Made by a program: the position numbers and the translations under genes. A model generated the notes under the pieces. That model did no database searches, was not told where the DNA came from, and saw nothing but the letters and a program-made list of their open reading frames with translations. A stretch of DNA of 64,000 bases from an uncultured Opitutia bacterium (GTDB taxonomy: Bacteria > Verrucomicrobiota > Verrucomicrobiia > Opitutales > CAJWYM01), in the NCBI GenBank assembly GCA_913049555.1, contig CAJWYM010000006.1, positions 2,125 through 66,124 on the forward strand, given 5' to 3'. Shown here one piece after another: positions 50,168 to 59,703 of this stretch (position 1 is its first letter; every line of letters starts with the position of its first letter).

Positions 50168-50872
50168 ATGTCAAAAACTATTTTTATCGGCGATGTTCAC
50201 GGATGTATCGAAGAATTAGAGTCTCTTTGGAGTCAACTTTCTATTTCGAAAGGAGATCGAGTGATTCAAGTGGGAGACTTGATCAATAAGGGACCCAGCA
50301 GCCGAGAGGTCATTCAATTTTGCATAAAAAATAAAATTGAGTCTATTCTCGGAAACCATGAAATTCGAATGCTTTCTATCTTCAAAGATAAAGCCTCGCT
50401 CAAATCTGGAACCATCAAAGATTATGAGCAAGACACTTTGAGAGAGTTGAAAACTAAGGATTGGGAATATCTTCAGTCTTTAGATTATACAATTTCTCTT
50501 AAAAAGGAGAAAATTGTTGTGGTGCACGCAGGATTTTTACCAGCGGTGCCTCTTGAGGAACAATCCAATAAAGTGATGACTAAAATTCAGGTCATAGACG
50601 CCTTTGGCAAACCTCATAAAAGAGCTAAATGTCCAGATGGGGTCGAGTGGAGTCAATTATGGAGAGGGCCTCCATTTGTTATTTATGGACATACCCCTAA
50701 AATTAAAATCGACCGAAAAAAATGGAGTCTTGGACTGGATACTTCTTGTGTGTATGGGCATAAATTGAGCGCATATATCTTAGAGAGTGATGAGTGGGTC
50801 CAAGTAAATGCCAAAAAATGCTACTCTTGGAATCGGTATATTTCTCCTTACAGTCAATGCAATGAAAGTTAA
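50168..50872 (+). CDS. PPP-family metallophosphoesterase (ApaH/PrpE-like)
   Basis: IGDVHGC, VGDLINKGP, GNHE, VVHAG, GHT motifs in order. Confidence 0.8.
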   Translation: MSKTIFIGDVHGCIEELESLWSQLSISKGDRVIQVGDLINKGPSSREVIQFCIKNKIESILGNHEIRMLSIFKDKASLKSGTIKDYEQDTLRELKTKDWEYLQSLDYTISLKKEKIVVVHAGFLPAVPLEEQSNKVMTKIQVIDAFGKPHKRAKCPDGVEWSQLWRGPPFVIYGHTPKIKIDRKKWSLGLDTSCVYGHKLSAYILESDEWVQVNAKKCYSWNRYISPYSQCNES

Positions 50873-50907: not shown

Positions 50908-51948
50908 TTAACAACAAGAACTGGGCTGATTTTTTTCTTTTTCCAAGCCCCCACAGTCTTCAAACAAACCATAATGGATAGAACGATCCCCATGTAAGTT
51001 AAAATGTTCCGCGTAGTGAGTTTCAGAGATCATCTTAGACGTGTTTCCACAAACTTTCATGGGTTTTCCTTTATTAAATCGGTGATGATCGTCTAAATCA
51101 AAGAAATCAGGACTTTCTGGGATCGTTCCCAAATAAGCAGCTGTTTGTCCAAAATCCTCACATCGATCCTCGTACTCTCCCTTAAAAGCACGAACTGTCA
51201 ATGAGTAAAACCCTATCATACCCACTTGTTTTTTTATTTCGGCATCCTCGATCGAAATGGCTGATTTTTTGACTATTCTATAGTCGGGACAACTCAAACT
51301 TGTCATCAATCTCCTGAAATCCTCAATGTACATCGCTCCAGACAAGCACTCCCCTAAAAGAACAGGATCTTTCTTTAAAGATTGAGGAATTCTTCTGTCG
51401 GAAAAAATGTCTGCAAAGTAGAGTTCTCCCCCTGGCTTTAAAACTCGAAAGATTTCTTTAAATACAGAATGTTTGTCAGGGGATAAGTTGAGGACGCAAT
51501 TGGAAATGATTACATCTATGGAGTTCTCTTCAATTCCGCAATCGGCTAAGTTTTCGATTTCCCCTAACTTAAAATCGATCGAGCCACAATTCCTTTGGTT
51601 TTGATCTAAAAATTCAGACTTGTACTTGTTTGCGATTGAGAGTTGTTCTTCGGTCATGTCTATCCCAATTACTTTTCCACCGGGACCCACCATCTGAGAC
51701 AACAAATAACAATCCCTGCCAGAACCACATCCCAAATCCAAGACAGTAGCACTTTCAATGGAGAGTGGAATTGGAGAACCACAACCATAAAACTTTTCTT
51801 GAATTTCATCAGGAATTTTTTGGATGAGAGGCATCATGAAATCGGGCATACGATCGACGGGACAACAGGCAGATGTCTTAAGATCTTTACTCGACTGGAG
51901 GGTCTTTCCATAGTATTCAGATATGTTTTCTTTATCAGTGCTCATCAA
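50908..51948 (-). CDS. arsM: Arsenite S-adenosylmethionine methyltransferase (ArsM/AS3MT family)
   Basis: DLKTSACCP..., FYGCGSPIP, VLDLGCGSGRDCYLLSQMVG..VIGIDMT and further conserved Cys closely follow the AS3MT pattern. Confidence 0.82.
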   Translation of the reverse strand: MMSTDKENISEYYGKTLQSSKDLKTSACCPVDRMPDFMMPLIQKIPDEIQEKFYGCGSPIPLSIESATVLDLGCGSGRDCYLLSQMVGPGGKVIGIDMTEEQLSIANKYKSEFLDQNQRNCGSIDFKLGEIENLADCGIEENSIDVIISNCVLNLSPDKHSVFKEIFRVLKPGGELYFADIFSDRRIPQSLKKDPVLLGECLSGAMYIEDFRRLMTSLSCPDYRIVKKSAISIEDAEIKKQVGMIGFYSLTVRAFKGEYEDRCEDFGQTAAYLGTIPESPDFFDLDDHHRFNKGKPMKVCGNTSKMISETHYAEHFNLHGDRSIHYGLFEDCGGLEKEKNQPSSCC

Positions 51949-52036
51949 TTCATTGTGGAGCTTTTTTTAAAAGAATAAATTCCAAAATATTTTATTCTTT
52001 TGATTAGATCCTTAAAATTCTTTTACATTCCTATCC

Positions 52037-53968
52037 ATGGATAGTACTCAAGAATTATACGCAAGTACTCGAGCTAGATTGTGTGATAAAAGCATATTTC
52101 TCAGTGATTTAAGATTTATCTGGGAAATGCGAGATCCACTTGTATGGAACAACAATCCAGAATTGTTCACTTTGTTGGCTAAGCGAACTTTGAAAGCTGG
52201 GGAGCCATTTTGGACCTATGACATCTCTGCGCAGGGACTATTGGTGGACAATCAAAACCTCCAATTAAAACATATACAAGCACTTAGTTTAGCTCAAAGT
52301 GGATCCACTCAAGCAGCCAATGAGCTATTGAAAAATCTTGTCATTATGGGGCACAAAGATGTTGAAACATTGAGTTTGCTCGGTAGAACATATAAGGATT
52401 TTTGGGTTAAAAGCTCTGAATCAAAGGAGCAAGAAAATTACCTGAATCTTGCATACAAGACTTATTTAGAGGCATTCGAGACTTCGGAAGAATATTATCC
52501 AGGTATCAATGCTGCCACTCTTGCTGTGTTTTTAGAAAACCTAGAAAATGCAAAAATTTTAGCTTCGCGCGTCTACGATATTTGTTTGAAGCAGCTTGAG
52601 TCGGATACATCTCATTGGCTACAGGCCACTCTAGCAGAAGCGTCTTTAATTTTTGGCAAGGTAGAGGAGTGCAAAGAATTTTACAGCAAAGCTTGTGAAA
52701 TCGCGGATGGGGACGCTGCCGGATTGTGCTCCATTCGAAAACAGGCGAGGTTACTCTCTGAAAAATTATTGGGGGACGCTTATGCATTGGACGAATGCTT
52801 TCCTGTTGGATCGATTGTGAGTTTTACAGGACATATGTTGGATCAACCTGGGCGAGAATTTCCACGATTCCCTGCTGAAAATGAAATGGAGGTCAAGGCC
52901 CTGATTGCAAACAAATTAGAGGAATTAGATGCGTCATTTGGTTTTTGTGCGGCTGCCTGTGGATGTGATATCCTTTTCTTAGAGGCAATGCTTGAGCGAG
53001 GAGGGGATATTCATATTGTGCTTCCTTTTGCAGACAAAAGTTTCCGGGAATTGAGCGTAGATGTCATTCCAAATTCTAATTGGAGCGATCGTTACAATAC
53101 TTTGATTTCAAAAGCGGCCTCTGTTCATTTTGTCAGTCATGATGAATATTCCGGAGGAAGTGCCGATTTCGAATTTGCCAATGATGTTTTGATCGGAATT
53201 GCCAATTTAAAGAAGCAAGTATTGGATGTTCCGTTGCATGCGCTGGCTGTATGGGATTCAAAAGAGGGAGGAGGACCAGGAGGAACTGAGGATGCCATTG
53301 CTAAATGGCAGAGTTGCGGTGTTGAGGTTAAGATTATTCGATTGAATGAATTGGTGGATCCCACCAGTAAAAAAGAAAATTATCCACCCGCTCAAAAGAA
53401 TGCTTATTTGGGAACGGAAACAAAGAAAGCAGTTTATCAGGATATAAAGGCGATTTTCTTCGCTGATATTGTGGGCTTTTCCAAATTAACGGAGCAAGAT
53501 ATTCCGCTTTATTACGAACATTTTCTGGTAAAAGCAGCTCAGTTGATTAAAAAGACTCGTTACAAACCTATCATTAAGAACACTTGGGGAGATGCTGTTT
53601 ATCTTGTGTTTGATTCGGTTAAAGATGCAGGTAGCTTTGCTTTAGATTTTCGAAGCATGATGGATGACACAGATTGGTTGGGTTATGGATTGTCTAAAGA
53701 TTTAAATGTTCGTATTGGATTGCATGCTGGCCCTGTAACTCGATACATCGATCCTGTAACCGAAATGGAATCCTGCACGGGATACCACGTCAGTCGAACG
53801 GCTAGAATTGAGCCCATTACTGCTGAAGGGCAAATTTACGTTTCTGAAATCTTTGCAGCTTTAGCTTCGACAAAAGATTGCATTGGATTTGCTTGCGATT
53901 ACGTTGGGGAGGTTCAATTAGCCAAGAAGTATGGAGCTTACAGAGTTTACCTTTTGAACAATCACTGA
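52037..53968 (+). CDS. Three-module protein: N-terminal TPR-like helical domain (DUF4071-like), central SLOG/LOG-like Rossmannoid domain, C-terminal class III nucleotidyl cyclase
   Basis: aa 1-250: LLGRTYKDFW..YYPGINAATL. aa 257-436: FGFCAAACGCDILFLEA ... GGPGGTEDA. aa 465-643: IFFADIVGFS, NTWGDAVYLVF, RIGLHAGPV, HVSRTARIE. Confidence 0.8.
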   Translation: MDSTQELYASTRARLCDKSIFLSDLRFIWEMRDPLVWNNNPELFTLLAKRTLKAGEPFWTYDISAQGLLVDNQNLQLKHIQALSLAQSGSTQAANELLKNLVIMGHKDVETLSLLGRTYKDFWVKSSESKEQENYLNLAYKTYLEAFETSEEYYPGINAATLAVFLENLENAKILASRVYDICLKQLESDTSHWLQATLAEASLIFGKVEECKEFYSKACEIADGDAAGLCSIRKQARLLSEKLLGDAYALDECFPVGSIVSFTGHMLDQPGREFPRFPAENEMEVKALIANKLEELDASFGFCAAACGCDILFLEAMLERGGDIHIVLPFADKSFRELSVDVIPNSNWSDRYNTLISKAASVHFVSHDEYSGGSADFEFANDVLIGIANLKKQVLDVPLHALAVWDSKEGGGPGGTEDAIAKWQSCGVEVKIIRLNELVDPTSKKENYPPAQKNAYLGTETKKAVYQDIKAIFFADIVGFSKLTEQDIPLYYEHFLVKAAQLIKKTRYKPIIKNTWGDAVYLVFDSVKDAGSFALDFRSMMDDTDWLGYGLSKDLNVRIGLHAGPVTRYIDPVTEMESCTGYHVSRTARIEPITAEGQIYVSEIFAALASTKDCIGFACDYVGEVQLAKKYGAYRVYLLNNH

Positions 53969-53975
53969 TCCTTAA

Positions 53976-56900
53976 ATGGCTGATATTCAAAATAAAAATC
54001 GGGTCATTCGTGTTTTTATCTCGAGCACTTTTCGAGATATGCAAGAAGAGCGTGACGTTTTAGTCAAGTGGGTCATTCCTGAGGTTCGTCGAAGGTGCTA
54101 TGATCGCTTGGTCGAATTGGTGGAGGTGGATCTTCGTTGGGGGATCACGGAGGCTCAGGCTCAAAAAGGGGAGACCATCTCCGTTTGTCTGGATGAAATT
54201 GATCGCTGTAGGCCCTATTTTATAGGAATGCTTGGAGAGAGATATGGATGGATTCCTGATTCATACAAAAAGGATTTGCTGGAGGTTCAACCGTGGATTC
54301 AAAATCATTTAGATAAGAGTGTTACCGAGCTCGAATTTATTTATGGTTTTCTAAAAAATAAAACCGTTCAAGACCAAGCTTTTATCTATTTTAGAGATAA
54401 AGAGTACGAACAAAAAGTTCCGAGCTCCATCCGTCCTTTGTATTTGAGTGAGGGGCCAGAGTCCAAAAGACTCCTGAACAAATTAAAAGACGATGTCAGG
54501 AATTCTGGGGCTTCTCTCAAAGAAATTTATAAAACCCCTGAGGAATTCGGTGAATTTGTCCTAGAAGACCTGTGGGAAGCCATTAATAAAGATTTTCCTG
54601 CAGGAAGTGAGCCCACTGCTCTAGAAATTGAGGCGAATAAACACGAAACCTTTGCGAATGTAAGAAGATCGGTATACATCGGCCGAGAAGACTATTATTC
54701 TTACATTGACAATCATATTGAAACGGAAACAAAACCCCTTGTAATTCAGGGGGATTCCGGAAGTGGTAAAAGTGCCTTGCTGGCGAACTGGATACTCCGA
54801 TATCAAAACAAAAATCCTGAAGATCTTGTTTTTTTACATTTTGTTGGAGGAACTGGAAATAGCTCCGACCATTTAAGGCTGGTTCAACGATTGATGGAGA
54901 CCATTCAATCCTGGGGCTTGTACAATGAGTCCCTTCCTACAGAGCCCAGTAAAATGATCGAAATGCTTCCTACTTGGCTTACTGCAGCAGGTGCCAACCG
55001 TAAGATTATGATCGTAATCGATGCCTTGAATCAACTTGAGGATAGGAATGGGGGTCAAGATTTGGGATGGTTGCCACATCAATTGCCAAAAAATGTTCAT
55101 TTGGTCTTAAGTACCTTGCCAGGAAAAGTTCAAACGCTGCTTTCTAAACGAAATTACCCATTCTTGATTGTGAAGCCCTTTGATCCAAAGGAGAGAAAAG
55201 GATTGATTCTTAATTACCTGGATCAATACCGAAAGCGTCTACCTGATCCTGCAGTTGAGAAGCTGATCCAAGCTAAAAATACCGAAAATCCTTTATTTTT
55301 GAAGACTGTTTTGGCAGAACTTAGAATTATGGGAGTTCATGAAGAACTGGACAAAAGAATTGCTTATTATTTATCCGCTAAAAATATTGAAAGCTTGTAT
55401 GAAAAGATGCTTGAGAGGATGGAGTCTGATTTTGACCGATCGCGAAAATATCTTGTTAGGGACTGTCTCTTTTATCTATGGTGCTCACGTCGAGGGCTCT
55501 CGGAATCAGAATTGTTAGATCTTTTAGGAACTACCGGTAAATCTTTACCAAGGGCCTATTTGTCTCCATTTTTACTGGCATTGGAGCATTTGTTATTAAA
55601 CACAAGCGGCATTATCACTTTCGCTCATGATCGGTTGAGGATTGCTGTTATGAATAGATATGCCCAATCAGGAGCGTTTATTGAGGATTATCGTAGAAAT
55701 CTATGCAGTTATTTTCGAGAGAAAGAAGAATTGGATCGATCGGTGGATGAGATTCCTTATCAGTTGAGCAGAATGCGCAACTGGACTCAGATGCACTCTT
55801 ACATTCGCCAGATTCCAGTGTTTGAAAAGGCCTTCGCAAAAGATAAGTTGGAACTGCTTTCTAATTGGTTCTTATTGGGCGATTTTTACAATATGGATGA
55901 AAGTTATCGGGTTGCTCTTCAATCCTGGGAGGGTGCTGAAGACAATGCGGATTTACCTACTTCAAAAATTATTCAAGTAATCACTGATCTAGGGTCATTC
56001 CTCTGTTTTTCAGGATCTGGTAAGTCTGCGACCATTTTATTTGAAAGAGCTTACGAGATTGCTTTGAATACCTATGGTTCTAACAGTAAAGAGACTGCTA
56101 GTTGTATGTCTCAATACGGGAAGCTTTTGTTAGACAATGGTAAGTATCAAAAAGCGGACAAACTCCTTCGTGAAGCTTTTAATACTCGTGTCAGGACTTT
56201 GGGTCCTGAGCACAGAGATACTTTGATGAGTATGGATGAATTGGCGCTCTTGGAAATGATGCAAGGGCATTACAAAGATGCAGAAATTCTTTACCAAAAG
56301 GGTTATGAGATCAGTAAAAAGATTTTAGGGGCAACGCATCCTGGTACGATGGAAAGCTTGAATGGTTTAGCGCTTTTGTATTTAAAGAAGGGCGAATATC
56401 AGAATGCTAAACCGATCCAAGAGCAGGCCTATCTTATTTTTGATCGAAATTTTGGAAAAGAGCATCCGGATACACTCGCTCTCAGAACTTCCTATGCTTT
56501 TACATTGTGTGAGATTGGAGAGGTAGACCAAGCGGTGGAACATTATCGTTCTACTCTTTCCATTTATGAGTCTTGTTTTGGCCCTGAACACCCTGGAACT
56601 CTGACGAGTCTTAGTGGATTGTCTCATATTTTAGAGGTTCGTGGAGATATAGAAGAGGCTGAGAAATTACTCTACAGAGTTCATTCTACCCAAAAAAGAA
56701 CTCTTGGAGGCGAACATCCTGAAACAATCAATACGCAAGCCCTTTGGGCCAGACTTTTACTTAAGAAAGATGAGATTTCAACTGCGGAATCTCATTTTAG
56801 AGAAGTTCTCTATTATCGCGAGAGACTCTTAGGGAAAGAGCATCCCGATACCATGGATAGTATGTATGACTTGTCTCAAGTATTGACTGCTGAAAAAGAA

Positions 56901-58397
56901 TACCTTGAGGCGGATCCAATTATCAGGGAATGTTATCAACTTAGAAAACAAGTTTTGGGAGGGGATCATGAAGACACACTTTTGGCTTTGATTGCACTTT
57001 CTGATATTACATTGGTCCTAGAGGATTTTGAAAACGCAGAGGATTACCTCAAGCAAGTGATTCGATTGGAAAAAGCAAAAGTAGACTCTGATTTGTTAGC
57101 AATCGCAAGAGTCGAGGCTAAATTGGGTCGTGTGCTTTCCAAAAAAGGAAATCACCTGAGTGCTGTTTCTTATTACAAAAGATCTTTGGCAGGCAAAGAG
57201 AAAGTCTTAGAGGTAGATCATGTGGAGTCCATTGAGGCAGCGAGGGCATTGGGGTTCCAGTTTTCAGTCAATAAGGAATTTGAAAAAGCAGAAGAGATTC
57301 TGAAAAAGGCTCTCAATCGAATTCGTAATAAAATAGAAGGCGATCAGATCTTAGAGGCATCAATCTTACATACGATGGGAAGTGTTTATGAGAATGATCA
57401 AGATTATAAGATTGCGATTGATTGTTATGGAGAGGCTTTACAGATTAGAAAAATTTGTTTGGGCGAGAAAGATGTTTCCTGTATTGAATCTCTAGTTCAA
57501 TTAGGATCGTGTCGTTTTTTGAATAAAGACTATGTCGAAAGTTGCGATTGCTTTTCTAAAGTTTTAGAAATCGGAGAACTTTATCTAACTCCTGAGAATG
57601 AAAAGATTGTGTATGCTCAGAGTTATTTGGGTGCTTCCTATTATCATTTAGGGGATTATCCAAGTGCTCAGGATTCGATTGCAAAGGCTCTGAAGATTCG
57701 GTTGAAAAATGATCGTTATTTGCCTATCTCTCAATTGATTGAGGATTTAGACAATATGAGTCGTATTCAGATTATGCTCGGTATTTATAATGATGCCGAG
57801 GGTTTATTGACTCAATCCTTGACCTTGAAGCAAAAACATTACGGGCGAGAGCATCATTCTGTAAGTGATAGTTTAGAACTGCTTGGATTTTTACATTTAA
57901 GGCAAGCTTCTTTCAGAAAGGCAGAAAAGTGCTACCGTAGGGTTACAGCTTTGCGGAGAAGAGAATCCGGATTGGAGTCTTTTGCATATTATCGATCCCT
58001 GGAGGGGCTCGCAATTGCTTCTGTAGAACTTGAAAATTACAGCGAGGCCTTGGATCTTTTTTCGTCGGTTGTAGATGGATTCAGTAAACTATTTTTAAAT
58101 GGACATAAAAAGTTGTTTGAATCCATGTGTGGGTATGTTTTTTGGTTGGATCAATGTGAGCGAACCGAGCAGGGAGCTGCTTGTATTGGAAAGATTATTC
58201 GCTACGCAGCAGATAGTTTTGTGAATCAGGATTCCGAAGGCTACCGAGAGGCTATTTTAAATTCCTATTCTCTGTTCCAAGATCACCACTTTAAAGAAGC
58301 TTGGGATCGATTCTTAGAAGCTCAAGAAATGAAAGATCCGATGTCTGCATTCCATATGCGTCTTTGCCAAAGTGGGCATACTTCTGTTCCCTGCTGA
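53976..58397 (+). CDS. STAND/NLR-like NTPase: DUF4062-type N-terminal domain, NACHT P-loop module, long array of KLC-type (42-aa) TPR repeats
   Basis: RVFISSTFRDMQEERDVL. Walker A GDSGSGKS (54750-54773). Walker B IMIVID (Asp codon 55020-55022). At least 10 repeats carrying G.EHPDT-like cores between about 56040 and 58100. Confidence 0.85.
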   Translation: MADIQNKNRVIRVFISSTFRDMQEERDVLVKWVIPEVRRRCYDRLVELVEVDLRWGITEAQAQKGETISVCLDEIDRCRPYFIGMLGERYGWIPDSYKKDLLEVQPWIQNHLDKSVTELEFIYGFLKNKTVQDQAFIYFRDKEYEQKVPSSIRPLYLSEGPESKRLLNKLKDDVRNSGASLKEIYKTPEEFGEFVLEDLWEAINKDFPAGSEPTALEIEANKHETFANVRRSVYIGREDYYSYIDNHIETETKPLVIQGDSGSGKSALLANWILRYQNKNPEDLVFLHFVGGTGNSSDHLRLVQRLMETIQSWGLYNESLPTEPSKMIEMLPTWLTAAGANRKIMIVIDALNQLEDRNGGQDLGWLPHQLPKNVHLVLSTLPGKVQTLLSKRNYPFLIVKPFDPKERKGLILNYLDQYRKRLPDPAVEKLIQAKNTENPLFLKTVLAELRIMGVHEELDKRIAYYLSAKNIESLYEKMLERMESDFDRSRKYLVRDCLFYLWCSRRGLSESELLDLLGTTGKSLPRAYLSPFLLALEHLLLNTSGIITFAHDRLRIAVMNRYAQSGAFIEDYRRNLCSYFREKEELDRSVDEIPYQLSRMRNWTQMHSYIRQIPVFEKAFAKDKLELLSNWFLLGDFYNMDESYRVALQSWEGAEDNADLPTSKIIQVITDLGSFLCFSGSGKSATILFERAYEIALNTYGSNSKETASCMSQYGKLLLDNGKYQKADKLLREAFNTRVRTLGPEHRDTLMSMDELALLEMMQGHYKDAEILYQKGYEISKKILGATHPGTMESLNGLALLYLKKGEYQNAKPIQEQAYLIFDRNFGKEHPDTLALRTSYAFTLCEIGEVDQAVEHYRSTLSIYESCFGPEHPGTLTSLSGLSHILEVRGDIEEAEKLLYRVHSTQKRTLGGEHPETINTQALWARLLLKKDEISTAESHFREVLYYRERLLGKEHPDTMDSMYDLSQVLTAEKEYLEADPIIRECYQLRKQVLGGDHEDTLLALIALSDITLVLEDFENAEDYLKQVIRLEKAKVDSDLLAIARVEAKLGRVLSKKGNHLSAVSYYKRSLAGKEKVLEVDHVESIEAARALGFQFSVNKEFEKAEEILKKALNRIRNKIEGDQILEASILHTMGSVYENDQDYKIAIDCYGEALQIRKICLGEKDVSCIESLVQLGSCRFLNKDYVESCDCFSKVLEIGELYLTPENEKIVYAQSYLGASYYHLGDYPSAQDSIAKALKIRLKNDRYLPISQLIEDLDNMSRIQIMLGIYNDAEGLLTQSLTLKQKHYGREHHSVSDSLELLGFLHLRQASFRKAEKCYRRVTALRRRESGLESFAYYRSLEGLAIASVELENYSEALDLFSSVVDGFSKLFLNGHKKLFESMCGYVFWLDQCERTEQGAACIGKIIRYAADSFVNQDSEGYREAILNSYSLFQDHHFKEAWDRFLEAQEMKDPMSAFHMRLCQSGHTSVPC

Positions 58398-58464
58398 AGA
58401 GTAAATCTATGCAAGAATTTTAAGTATACGAATAGGATTGGATAAAATTCTAAATCCCTCTTCT

Positions 58465-59703
58465 TCAACGAAGCATGTTCACAGAAAAATCAAGTGCCTT
58501 TATAAATTGATCGATTTCTTCTTTTGTATTGTAGAAGCTCAAGGAGGCTCGGATTGTTCCAGGGACATTGTAGTGAGTCATAAGGGGCTCGGTGCAGTGA
58601 TTGCCAATTCTCACCGCAATTCCCTGTTTGTCTAACAATACTCCGATATCATAAGGGTGGGTGCCATCTACCAGAAAAGAGAATGTGCAAATTTTGTGTT
58701 TAGACTCGCCATATATTTTAAGTCCTTTGATTTCCTTTAAGCGTATCGTCCCGTATTCCAAAAGATCAGATTCTTGTTTCATTCGCAATTGAATGTTGAA
58801 ACTATTCAAATATTTTATAGAGGCACCGAGGGCAATCACCCCAGATATGTTCGGAGTTCCAGCTTCAAATTTGGAGGGGGTTTCAGCATAGGTTGTTTTT
58901 TCGATGCTCACATTTTTAATCATATCTCCTCCTCCATGCCAAGGAGGCATCAGATCTAAAATGGACTTTTTGCCGTATAGAATGCCAACCCCCGTAGGGC
59001 CAAAAAGTTTGTGAGCAGAAAATGCATAAAAATCACAATCGAGCTCTTGTACATCGATTTCCTTGTGAGAGATGGCTTGAGCACCGTCTAAAAGGACGGT
59101 TATGTGATTTGATTTTGCAATTTCTATGAACTTTTGAACGGGATTGATGGTTCCTAAAGTGTTGGATATGTGGGTCAAGGCTAATAATTTAGTTCTCGGA
59201 GTGATGGAACTTTTAAATTCATCCAAGTCCAATTCTCCAATTTCATTTACAGAGAGGGCTTTCAAAACGGCCCCTTTTCTTTCACACAACATTTGCCAGG
59301 GAACAATATTAGAGTGATGTTCCATGAGAGTGATTATGATTTCATCTCCCTGTTTAATGTTGGTTTCTCCCCAACTGTAAGCGACGAGATTTATGGATTC
59401 AGTAGTTCCTCGAGTGAAGACAATTTCTTTTTCGCTTGAGGCATGGATTAAGTGTTGAACCTGTTTGCGAACTTCCTCGTATTCTTCGGTTGCAGAAGCA
59501 CTCAACTCATGAACCCCTCGGTGGATGTTAGCATAAGATTGACTGTCAAATTCTTTGAGCTTTTTGATCGTACAAGCAGGTTTCTGGGTGGAGGCCCCAT
59601 TGTCAAAATAAACTAGAGGTTTTCCATGGACAGAGCTTTGAAGGATAGGGAAGTCTTTTCTCCATTGAGAAACGCTTGGTTCTTTTATGTCTTTTATAGC
59701 CAT
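58465..59703 (-). CDS. sufS: Cysteine desulfurase, SufS/CsdA-type (class V aminotransferase fold)
   Basis: NIHRGVHELS, SAHKLFGPTGVG (PLP Lys), RIGNHCTEPL (active-site Cys loop). No sufBCD genes nearby. Confidence 0.85.
   Translation of the reverse strand: MAIKDIKEPSVSQWRKDFPILQSSVHGKPLVYFDNGASTQKPACTIKKLKEFDSQSYANIHRGVHELSASATEEYEEVRKQVQHLIHASSEKEIVFTRGTTESINLVAYSWGETNIKQGDEIIITLMEHHSNIVPWQMLCERKGAVLKALSVNEIGELDLDEFKSSITPRTKLLALTHISNTLGTINPVQKFIEIAKSNHITVLLDGAQAISHKEIDVQELDCDFYAFSAHKLFGPTGVGILYGKKSILDLMPPWHGGGDMIKNVSIEKTTYAETPSKFEAGTPNISGVIALGASIKYLNSFNIQLRMKQESDLLEYGTIRLKEIKGLKIYGESKHKICTFSFLVDGTHPYDIGVLLDKQGIAVRIGNHCTEPLMTHYNVPGTIRASLSFYNTKEEIDQFIKALDFSVNMLR

Follow-up and report, generated by a model that had tools for sequence, protein, structure and literature searches.

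What does a nucleotidyl cyclase do in one operon with an NLR-like protein? The question is raised by a two-gene locus of an uncultured Opitutia bacterium, located in a 64,000-nucleotide (nt) stretch of contig CAJWYM010000006.1 that was analysed as a whole and is called the window below. Gene A (nt 52037–53968, plus strand; open reading frame and Pfam) encodes a protein of 643 residues that combines TPR-S, SLOG and class III cyclase domains, and gene B (nt 53976–58397, plus strand; open reading frame and Pfam) encodes a protein of 1473 residues with a TIR-like DUF4062 domain, a NACHT domain and a TPR array. The 7 nt between them (53969–53975, plus strand) form an operon junction, which measures 20–31 nt in orthologous cassettes. 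The reading that we favour, to which the predicted domains and their neighbours lend roughly even chances, is that B senses an invader and makes a signal derived from nicotinamide adenine dinucleotide (NAD), which the TPR-S/SLOG part of A would bind to switch on the cyclase. A preliminary description, made from the sequence of this DNA, had proposed a nucleotide-signalling, defence-like logic for the pair, and our results support that idea while changing the assignment of several of its parts.

Relatives of A with 99, 74, 73 and 57% identity are each followed, on the same strand and after a gap of 7–31 nt, by a gene for a DUF4062–NACHT–TPR protein of 1472–1476 residues. The pair is found in four different genomic contexts, flanked by a methyltransferase and SufS (the window and locus L081), by a small open reading frame and a PATR protein (L082), by IMPDH and ThuA (L083–85) and by Lgt and a P-II-like protein (L176). 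The two genes co-diverge, with identities of 74, 73 and 57% for A against 59, 54 and 39% for B, as expected of the self-contained two-gene module described earlier. Identical or 99%-identical A and B proteins are encoded on several independent marine metagenome contigs and, therefore, both are real genes. A–B is a real, conserved and uncharacterized module. No DUF4062 or NACHT homologue was detected near A in 80 representative-genome loci by tblastn with the DUF4062, NACHT and TPR parts of B, from which it follows that the exact A–B pair is clade-specific. The proposed co-localization of the two families is thus seen in the four cassette contexts and does not extend to those 80 loci.

The N-terminal part of A (residues 1–245; nt 52037–52771, plus strand) is a TPR-S helical solenoid. 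The Pfam core lies at residues 72–163 (TPR-S, PF20308; E = 8e-20), and MAP3K_TRAF_bd also matches this stretch (E = 6e-10). The AlphaFold2 model consists of 14 helices with a predicted local distance difference test score (pLDDT) of 97, and Asp62, Glu110, Thr111, Lys120, Asp121, Asn158 and Trp194 are invariant in the family. A sequence search of the PDB with this region gave no match and a Foldseek search of the PDB with its model returned generic TPR folds only, with ASK1 outside the top 50; the TPR-S membership of A is therefore that given by the Pfam model. The 2020 work of Burroughs & Aravind is said to predict that TPR-S recognizes NAD-derived signals of TIR domains, and reportedly describes how this scaffold was taken up into the animal ASK signalosome. 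According to a preprint of December 2025, the TIR proteins of type VIII Thoeris make canonical cyclic ADP-ribose (cADPR), which activates the effector ThsI, a protein composed of a CMP-hydrolase domain and a TPR-S-type TPR.

The middle domain of A (residues 250–440; nt 52784–53356, plus strand) has no Pfam match and was assigned by AlphaFold2 and Foldseek as a Rossmann-like domain of the SLOG superfamily (YpsA/DprA-like). The model of residues 241–460 has a pLDDT of 90.3, and its top Foldseek match is YpsA (PDB code 2nx2; E = 5e-8, TM-score of 0.72), with DprA, ShosA, the Moco carrier protein (MCP) and LOG among the further matches. The SLOG domain recognized in the preliminary description is thereby confirmed. 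Gly265, His266, Asp269, Arg277, Pro279, Gly309, Asp311, Glu316, Pro330 and Trp406 are invariant, and Phe278 is invariant in 20 sequences and at least 90% conserved in 53 sequences. The family consensus is GDGxGGTAxAV and the LOG-type catalytic motif PGGxGTxxE is absent; moreover, Glu418, which had been picked out as a SLOG residue for mutation, is Ala in most homologues and hence not conserved. Because the catalytic Glu motif is missing and Glu418 is unconserved, ligand binding by this domain appears more likely than catalysis.

The C-terminal domain of A (residues 466–643; nt 53432–53965, plus strand) is a class III nucleotidyl cyclase, as judged by Pfam (Guanylate_cyc, PF00211, residues 472–641; E = 1.8e-10, 41.2 bits against a gathering cut-off of 21.9) and by alignment with soluble guanylate cyclase (PDB code 3et6) and rhodopsin-guanylate cyclase. 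Asp477 and Asp519, correctly taken to be the metal-binding aspartates in the preliminary description, are invariant in the family, as are Arg559 and Arg590. The residues that specify the base fit neither the Lys/Asp pair of adenylate cyclases nor the Glu/Cys pair of guanylate cyclases. All three domains of A are conserved among the cassette orthologues, the cyclase best of all (72–80% identity), and the enzyme is probably active. In PADLOC (E ≤ 0.01), A has no match to PycC or the Pycsar clade.

B starts with a predicted TIR-like DUF4062 NADase domain (residues 9–205; nt 54000–54590, plus strand), which is followed by a NACHT NTPase and helical/winged-helix module (residues 236–560; nt 54681–55655, plus strand; Pfam NACHT, NPHP3_N, NPHP3_hel and nSTAND1) and by a TPR_12/TPR_10 array that is presumed to be the ligand sensor (residues 580–1473; nt 55713–58394, plus strand; Pfam). 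In the Pfam search, DUF4062 covers residues 12–122 (E = 3e-16) and NACHT/NPHP3_N/NPHP3_hel residues 250–553, and a long TPR_12/TPR_10/TPR_NPHP3 array is also present, in agreement with the layout proposed before. The statement that the pair contains no TIR or other effector domain has to be revised. Two 2026 preprints (one of them bioRxiv 10.64898/2026.05.01.722283) identify DUF4062 as a TIR-like NADase, which is at work in human TEP1 and in Swarozyc and Evangelion, two anti-phage systems that each consist of a single gene; human NPHP3, NWD1, NWD2 and TEP1 are DUF4062–NACHT proteins according to these preprints. Residues 9–205 of B match the crystal structure of the TIR-like domain of TEP1 (PDB code 11gz_A) with an E value of 9.2e-36 (phmmer). 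Glu120 aligns with the catalytic glutamate of DUF4062 (E1008 in TEP1 and E97 in KpSwz), Arg20 with R908 and Arg89 with R976 of TEP1 (numbering of the construct in the paper), and mutation of R908 and R976 lowers the activity of TEP1 (bioRxiv 10.64898/2026.05.01.722283). Given this structural match and the alignment of the catalytic Glu and the two Arg residues, B is predicted to be an NLR of the NPHP3 type whose head is a TIR-like enzyme, and not an NLR devoid of an effector. Full-length human NPHP3, NWD1 and NWD2 are inactive in vitro (bioRxiv 10.64898/2026.05.01.722283), so that activity of an NPHP3-type protein such as B is not to be assumed.

The TE[LM]EF motif of the DUF4062 domain is kept in the orthologues of B, as is the Walker A sequence GDSGSGKS with Lys265, the lysine named for this role in the preliminary description. 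Sequence identity across the orthologues falls from 61–78% in DUF4062 through 51–70% in NACHT to 33–59% in the TPR array and 22–40% in its C-terminal part, an NLR-like gradient with a conserved head and a fast-evolving TPR sensor. The B family comprises more than 2100 proteins, several of which are named ‘nephrocystin-3’ in their source records. PADLOC gave only marginal matches for B (mad8, E = 2e-4, and PDC-S20) and no Avs or bNACHT model at E ≤ 0.01, a result that, together with the lack of a match for A, comes close to what had been expected.

The A family extends well beyond the cassette: at E < 1e-5 it counts more than 1150 proteins, and species-representative genomes, when scanned, contained at least 586 stretches that match it. 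Its members come from Acidobacteriota, Verrucomicrobiota, Cyanobacteria, Poribacteria and further phyla, and their annotations are limited to ‘TRAFs-binding/DUF4071 domain-containing’ or ‘class 3 adenylate cyclase’. Neighbours were sampled in 80 representative-genome loci and 80 metagenome loci (a metagenome scan with a single A protein found nothing, and the loci came from an alignment-based rescan), and TIR genes were counted in the 100 non-redundant loci in which A is flanked by at least 2 kb on either side. A TIR-superfamily gene lies within 2 kb of A in 46 of these 100 loci and within 5 kb in 56; canonical TIR_2/ThsB_TIR genes flank A in 40 and DUF4062 genes in six more. TIR-like open reading frames make up 76 of 568 within 2 kb of A compared with 28 of 970 beyond 3 kb (odds ratio 5.2, p = 1e-14). 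This enrichment is a conservative estimate, since the home-made TIR profile falsely flagged tandem cyclic mononucleotide (cNMP)-binding proteins about 8 kb from A, and such flags inflate the distant count. Of the home-made DUF4062 profile only iteration 0 was used, since later iterations strayed into TPR repeats.

Pfam assigned TIR_2 to 64, TIR to 35, ThsB_TIR to 24 and DUF4062 to 16 of the 69 flagged TIR neighbours. Clustering of neighbours also found recurrent TIR genes next to distant A homologues. The types encountered include TIR_2 + DUF4062 tandems, TIR fused to a protein kinase, Sel1, WD40 or LRR, ThsB-like TIRs, DUF4062-only and DUF4062 + TPR proteins, and STAND NTPases, so that the sensor-like C-termini (kinase, Sel1, WD40, LRR, TPR or STAND) appear to be swappable. 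The type of TIR partner tracks the clades of A; at several loci a single A has two different TIR genes for neighbours, and the partners are often divergent or 1–5 kb away. The constant partner of the A family is thus a TIR-type fold with interchangeable sensor-like domains, represented by an NLR-type DUF4062 protein in the clade of the window. Pfam recognizes no cNMP-binding domain in B, and none was found in the 69 TIR partners, either among the 25 top Pfam families listed or by CRP-seeded jackhmmer.

Two plasmid loci place related domains in comparable surroundings. In an unannotated record of Rhodococcus sp. JS3073 (plasmid NZ_CP113952.1; locus L181, 3961–11566), three co-directional genes encode a TIR–nSTAND1–WD40 protein of 1424 residues, a TPR-S protein of 479 residues and an A-type SLOG fused to patatin (560 residues), the SLOG matching that of A with an E value of 2e-13. 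Judged by these domains, this is the module set of the window with patatin replacing the cyclase. In Priestia aryabhattai (plasmid NZ_CP128553.1; locus L178, 3163–11372), PycTM (PADLOC, E = 1.7e-29) is accompanied by two hypothetical proteins, a cyclase/TPR-S protein, a RyR protein and a TIR_2 protein of 743 residues that is separate from PycTM. The cyclase/TPR-S protein is domain-permuted and its cyclase belongs to the clade of A (32% identity, E = 1e-20), with which it has the motifs NTWGDA and ARIEP in common. This arrangement may represent a relay from TIR through cNMP to a pore. Both loci suggest that the cyclase occupies an effector or output position, and the linkage of PycTM to the cyclase in Priestia suggests that the cNMP product of a cyclase of the A clade can have a dedicated downstream effector. 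A third plasmid, pSBC2-4 of Caballeronia sp. SBC2 (locus L177, 1–7677), is mobilizable and carries a distant TPR-S + cyclase homologue (24% identity, no SLOG by Pfam), the gene for which overlaps an upstream gene for a hypothetical protein of 463 residues; a DUF4231 protein and a TIR-domain protein are encoded within about 5.5 kb.

Further domains recur around the two families. A RyR domain (PF02026) is fused N-terminally in 69 of 160 A-family open reading frames (for example, L015 9590–11827) and is absent from A of the window; AAA/STAND-like proteins of 915–961 residues with two RyR domains adjoin DUF4062–NACHT genes (L170 8976–11723 and L172 8975–11860), and the RyR gene of the Priestia locus (L178 7505–7789) encodes a stand-alone protein of 94 residues. 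In animals cADPR has been linked to the ryanodine receptor, and the recurrence of RyR near TIR and DUF4062 is intriguing in that light. The two islands that contain these AAA/STAND-like proteins (L170 4649–14865 and L172 63–14865) also hold Macro + TIR and DUF4231/SLATT-like proteins, a second DUF4062–NACHT–WD40 gene, a PRPP-synthetase-like gene and a TIR_2 fragment. By their gene content, these two of the three B-family contexts without A clearly appear to be conflict islands and look like uncharacterized islands centred on NAD and ADP-ribose (ADPR). In several Pyrinomonadaceae loci, a tandem cNMP-binding protein (POPDC-like + cNMP_binding) is encoded about 8 kb downstream of the A homologue (L009 20066–20797, L016 19860–20546, L023 19681–20472 and L094 20186–20836); it could be a receiver of the cyclase product or a case of coincidental synteny among related genomes.

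In the order of events that we favour, the trigger, probably a phage protein, would be bound by the fast-evolving TPR array of B, and the NACHT module would oligomerize. Oligomerization would gather the N-terminal TIR-like DUF4062 domains, the active-site residues of which are conserved, and cleavage of NAD+ by these domains would yield ADPR itself or a product that is cyclic or derived from ADPR. The TPR-S region of A, either alone or jointly with the YpsA-like SLOG domain, which is read as non-catalytic, would bind this product, and binding would activate the C-terminal class III cyclase as a homodimer. The cyclase would then make a cyclic mononucleotide, for which no base is predicted. Standing in the effector slot, it may act through a cNMP-gated effector encoded elsewhere or by draining the nucleoside triphosphate pool, and consumption of NAD+ by B may add to growth arrest. 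A is placed as the receiver because it has two candidate receiver domains and an output enzyme, and its partners have sensor repeats and a TIR-type enzyme.

Several observations weigh against this proposal. The characterized DUF4062 enzymes KpSwz and TEP1 yield ADPR and nicotinamide only, with no cyclic derivatives formed by TEP1 (bioRxiv 10.64898/2026.05.01.722283); a signal dedicated to this purpose is hence only a proposal for B. Equally, the authors of the Thoeris preprint only presume that the TPR of ThsI is the cADPR sensor. Within the cyclase, Ser586 occupies the position of the canonical transition-state Asn, which is retained in a minority of homologues, and the base-specifying positions (Asn515 and a variable Cys580) are non-canonical, so that the base of the product is not predictable. 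No cNMP-binding or PycTM effector is present in the cassette or the window (searched with PycTM and CRP seeds), and across 169 A-family loci cNMP-binding proteins are only sporadic and not adjacent to A, and PycTM does not occur. A TIR-superfamily gene is missing within 2 kb in 54% of the A-family loci, no A-family member was found in IMG/VR viral contigs, and no A-family gene lies near the B-family NLRs in the three contexts (four loci) examined, which suggests that most B-family NLRs function without A and that B could be self-sufficient. Neither a defence island nor a mobile element is seen in the window, and its composition is unremarkable: its GC content is even at 0.38–0.41, which excludes a compositional island, and the neighbours of A–B are housekeeping genes (ArsM-like, SufS, NrdR and PLP enzymes), in line with the caveat of the preliminary description that no mobile-element or defence genes flank the pair. 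The other cassette contexts are likewise housekeeping and none resembles a defence island, so that the enrichment near defence genes suggested as a check, which is also a criterion of Thoeris, is not seen.

These points leave room for three other arrangements. B might be a self-sufficient NLR-type NADase and A an accessory or physiological cyclase that connects NAD+/ADPR stress to ordinary cNMP signalling, for instance in dormancy, motility or development, in which case the two genes would not form an anti-phage relay of their own. The size of the A family and its mostly housekeeping contexts in Acidobacteriota, Verrucomicrobiota and Cyanobacteria would fit such a role, as would the lack of an adjacent TIR gene in over half of the loci, the frequency of Crp-type and other cNMP-binding proteins in A-family genomes, the often solitary occurrence of B-family members and the absence of a defence island from the window. 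We nevertheless consider it rather unlikely, given that A and TIR genes are strongly associated across clades, that the cassette has moved as a unit between four contexts and that sister architectures put a cell-killing patatin or PycTM into the same grammar.

The direction of signalling could also be reversed, as the preliminary description implied in making the cyclase the source of the primary messenger and the STAND protein its receiver, in the manner of CBASS or Pycsar. A would then sense the trigger by its TPR-S/SLOG part and its cNMP would activate the NADase of B as terminal effector, much as Pucsar uses cGMP to activate a TIR NADase with a cyclic-nucleotide-binding domain (CNBD); DUF4062 proteins are proven terminal NADase effectors and A is upstream of B in the operon. 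No cNMP-binding domain was found, however, in B by Pfam or in the 69 TIR partners by Pfam (25 top families) and CRP-seeded jackhmmer, and A has two candidate sensors of its own. The WD40, TPR, LRR and STAND repeats of the partners would be needless for a pure effector, PADLOC detects no PycC-like match for A, and the cNMP-type effector PycTM of Priestia is separate from the TIR gene; a reversed order is thus quite improbable. We attach still less weight to direct protein–protein coupling, in which the TPR-S region of A would bind B or its oligomer, so that the cyclase would be drawn to the NLR platform and switched on there with no need of a diffusible NAD-derived messenger. Protein binding is a common function of TPR domains, the homologous TPR of ASK1 is a protein-scaffolding region (compare the MAP3K_TRAF_bd match in A) and the BcTir/Tpr preprint reports that a Tir–Tpr complex is required. 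Against this, the partners of the A family share a TIR-type fold only and are otherwise unrelated, many of them are encoded divergently or 1–5 kb away, and type VIII Thoeris responds to exogenous cADPR, which makes such coupling very unlikely.

Taken as signalling from B to A, the module would work most like Thoeris-type TIR signalling, in particular its TIR–TPR-S branch (type VIII). A TIR-type gene, B, adjoins a protein that fuses TPR-S to a nucleotide-directed enzymatic domain, and NAD-derived signal logic, established as cADPR in type VIII, is inferred for A–B. The earlier verdict that no described family accommodates the pair therefore gives way to that of a TIR/Thoeris-type variant, since A has a TPR-S region as in ThsI and its family is associated with TIR-superfamily genes. 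In place of the CMP-hydrolase/DRHyd domain of type VIII, A has a YpsA-like SLOG and a class III cyclase as its enzymatic part; a DUF4062–NACHT–TPR NLR stands where type VIII has a small ThsB, and A–B is known from sequence alone and has no defence-island context. SLOG, Macro and TPR-S count as established or predicted receivers of TIR products, and A has two of them. SLOG serves as the receiver in type I Thoeris, and a SLOG of the DprA type is the hallmark of the type III effector; the SLOG domain of A is likewise a candidate receiver of a TIR product, and some A-family loci have several TIR genes per effector, as in type III. The SLOG of A is YpsA/DprA-like, however, with ThsA (type I) outside the top structural matches in Foldseek, and the output is a cyclase and not SIR2 as in types I and III (ThsA/ThsD). 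Among the named Thoeris effectors (ThsA and ThsC–L), A matched none of those modelled in PADLOC 2.0, the library of which does not include types III–XI (ThsD and ThsI among them).

Other systems resemble one half of the pair. The layout of B equals that of NPHP3, and the catalytic Glu of DUF4062 is present as in Swarozyc, Evangelion, TEP1, NPHP3 and NWD1; Swarozyc and Evangelion differ from B in being single-gene systems with other auxiliary domains, and no described DUF4062 protein has a TPR-S/SLOG/cyclase partner. Avs and bNACHT proteins similarly combine an N-terminal effector, a STAND NTPase and a fast-evolving C-terminal repeat sensor, whereas B falls in the NPHP3/TEP1 clade of NACHT proteins, matches none of their models in PADLOC (E ≤ 0.01) and shares its operon with a second signalling enzyme. 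Pycsar and Pucsar have in common with A–B a class III-type cyclase in a conflict-system setting and TIR-family NADases, and the Priestia relative of A lies beside PycTM. Nevertheless, A is missed by the PycC models, B lacks the cNMP-binding domain of PycTIR and PucTIR, and the direction of the signal is likely to be opposite. With no PycC-type cyclase and no CNBD effector, A–B does not, to judge from its domains, belong to Pycsar or Pucsar. Two features set it apart from every described type, its SLOG + class III cyclase output and an NPHP3-type NLR as TIR component. In the accessible parts of the systematic survey of Thoeris, no effector with a cNMP cyclase is described, and the 2020 work of Burroughs & Aravind may already list a TPR-S–SLOG–cyclase protein. 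The Pucsar preprint describes an ‘immune clade 1’ in which cyclases are joined to STAND proteins, besides other predicted systems, and makes no mention of the A–B architecture.

If B does signal to A, TIR-based bacterial immunity would include a new class of effector, a class III cyclase gated by TPR-S/SLOG, and DUF4062-headed NLR-type proteins would act as signal generators besides being terminal NADases. A bolder version, possible but doubtful in our view, is a two-tier relay in which the NAD-derived signal of an NLR is converted through TPR-S/SLOG into cNMP, joining NAD/ADPR and cNMP immune signalling, with B and the TPR-S of A as counterparts of NPHP3/TEP1/NWD1 and of the TPR of ASK1–3, respectively. 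From these two resemblances a functional link in animals would be predicted, in which ASK-type TPR-S modules sense the products of DUF4062/TIR NADases. The interest of A–B thus lies in its unusual cyclase output, its NLR-type signal generator and its link to the human NPHP3/TEP1 and ASK modules. It offers a tractable bacterial system for the ligand of TPR-S, a scaffold common to human ASK kinases, and for the role of NPHP3-type DUF4062–NACHT–TPR proteins. Because the A family is large and barely annotated, a functional assignment would propagate widely.

The immediate surroundings of the cassette agree with the preliminary description, both open reading frames, their 7-nt spacing and the flanking genes being reproduced by our gene calls and Pfam. 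The left neighbour is a divergent ArsM-like S-adenosylmethionine methyltransferase (nt 50908–51948, minus strand) and the right neighbour a convergent SufS-family cysteine desulfurase (nt 58465–59703, minus strand). An ApaH-like calcineurin-type metallophosphoesterase is encoded two genes upstream of A (nt 50168–50872, plus strand). ApaH-like enzymes have been proposed as degraders of the messenger in TPR-S systems; the gene was rejected as a component of this kind because none of the three other cassette contexts contains it, and it is probably unrelated. An inverted repeat, ATCCTTAAAATTCTT, brackets the cassette, with 15-nt arms at 52008–52022 and 58413–58427 that are complementary at 14 of 15 positions and lie in the two short intergenic regions (no strand is assigned to either arm). 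It was matched by two of 300 shuffles and its significance is uncertain; its interpretation as an insertion scar was rejected because the repeat is absent from the three other contexts. Scans of the locus for promoters and terminators were uninformative, promoter-like sites being rarer than in shuffles. The sequence GATCCTTAAA precedes the start codon of A and also that of B, where the second copy lies at nt 53961–53970.

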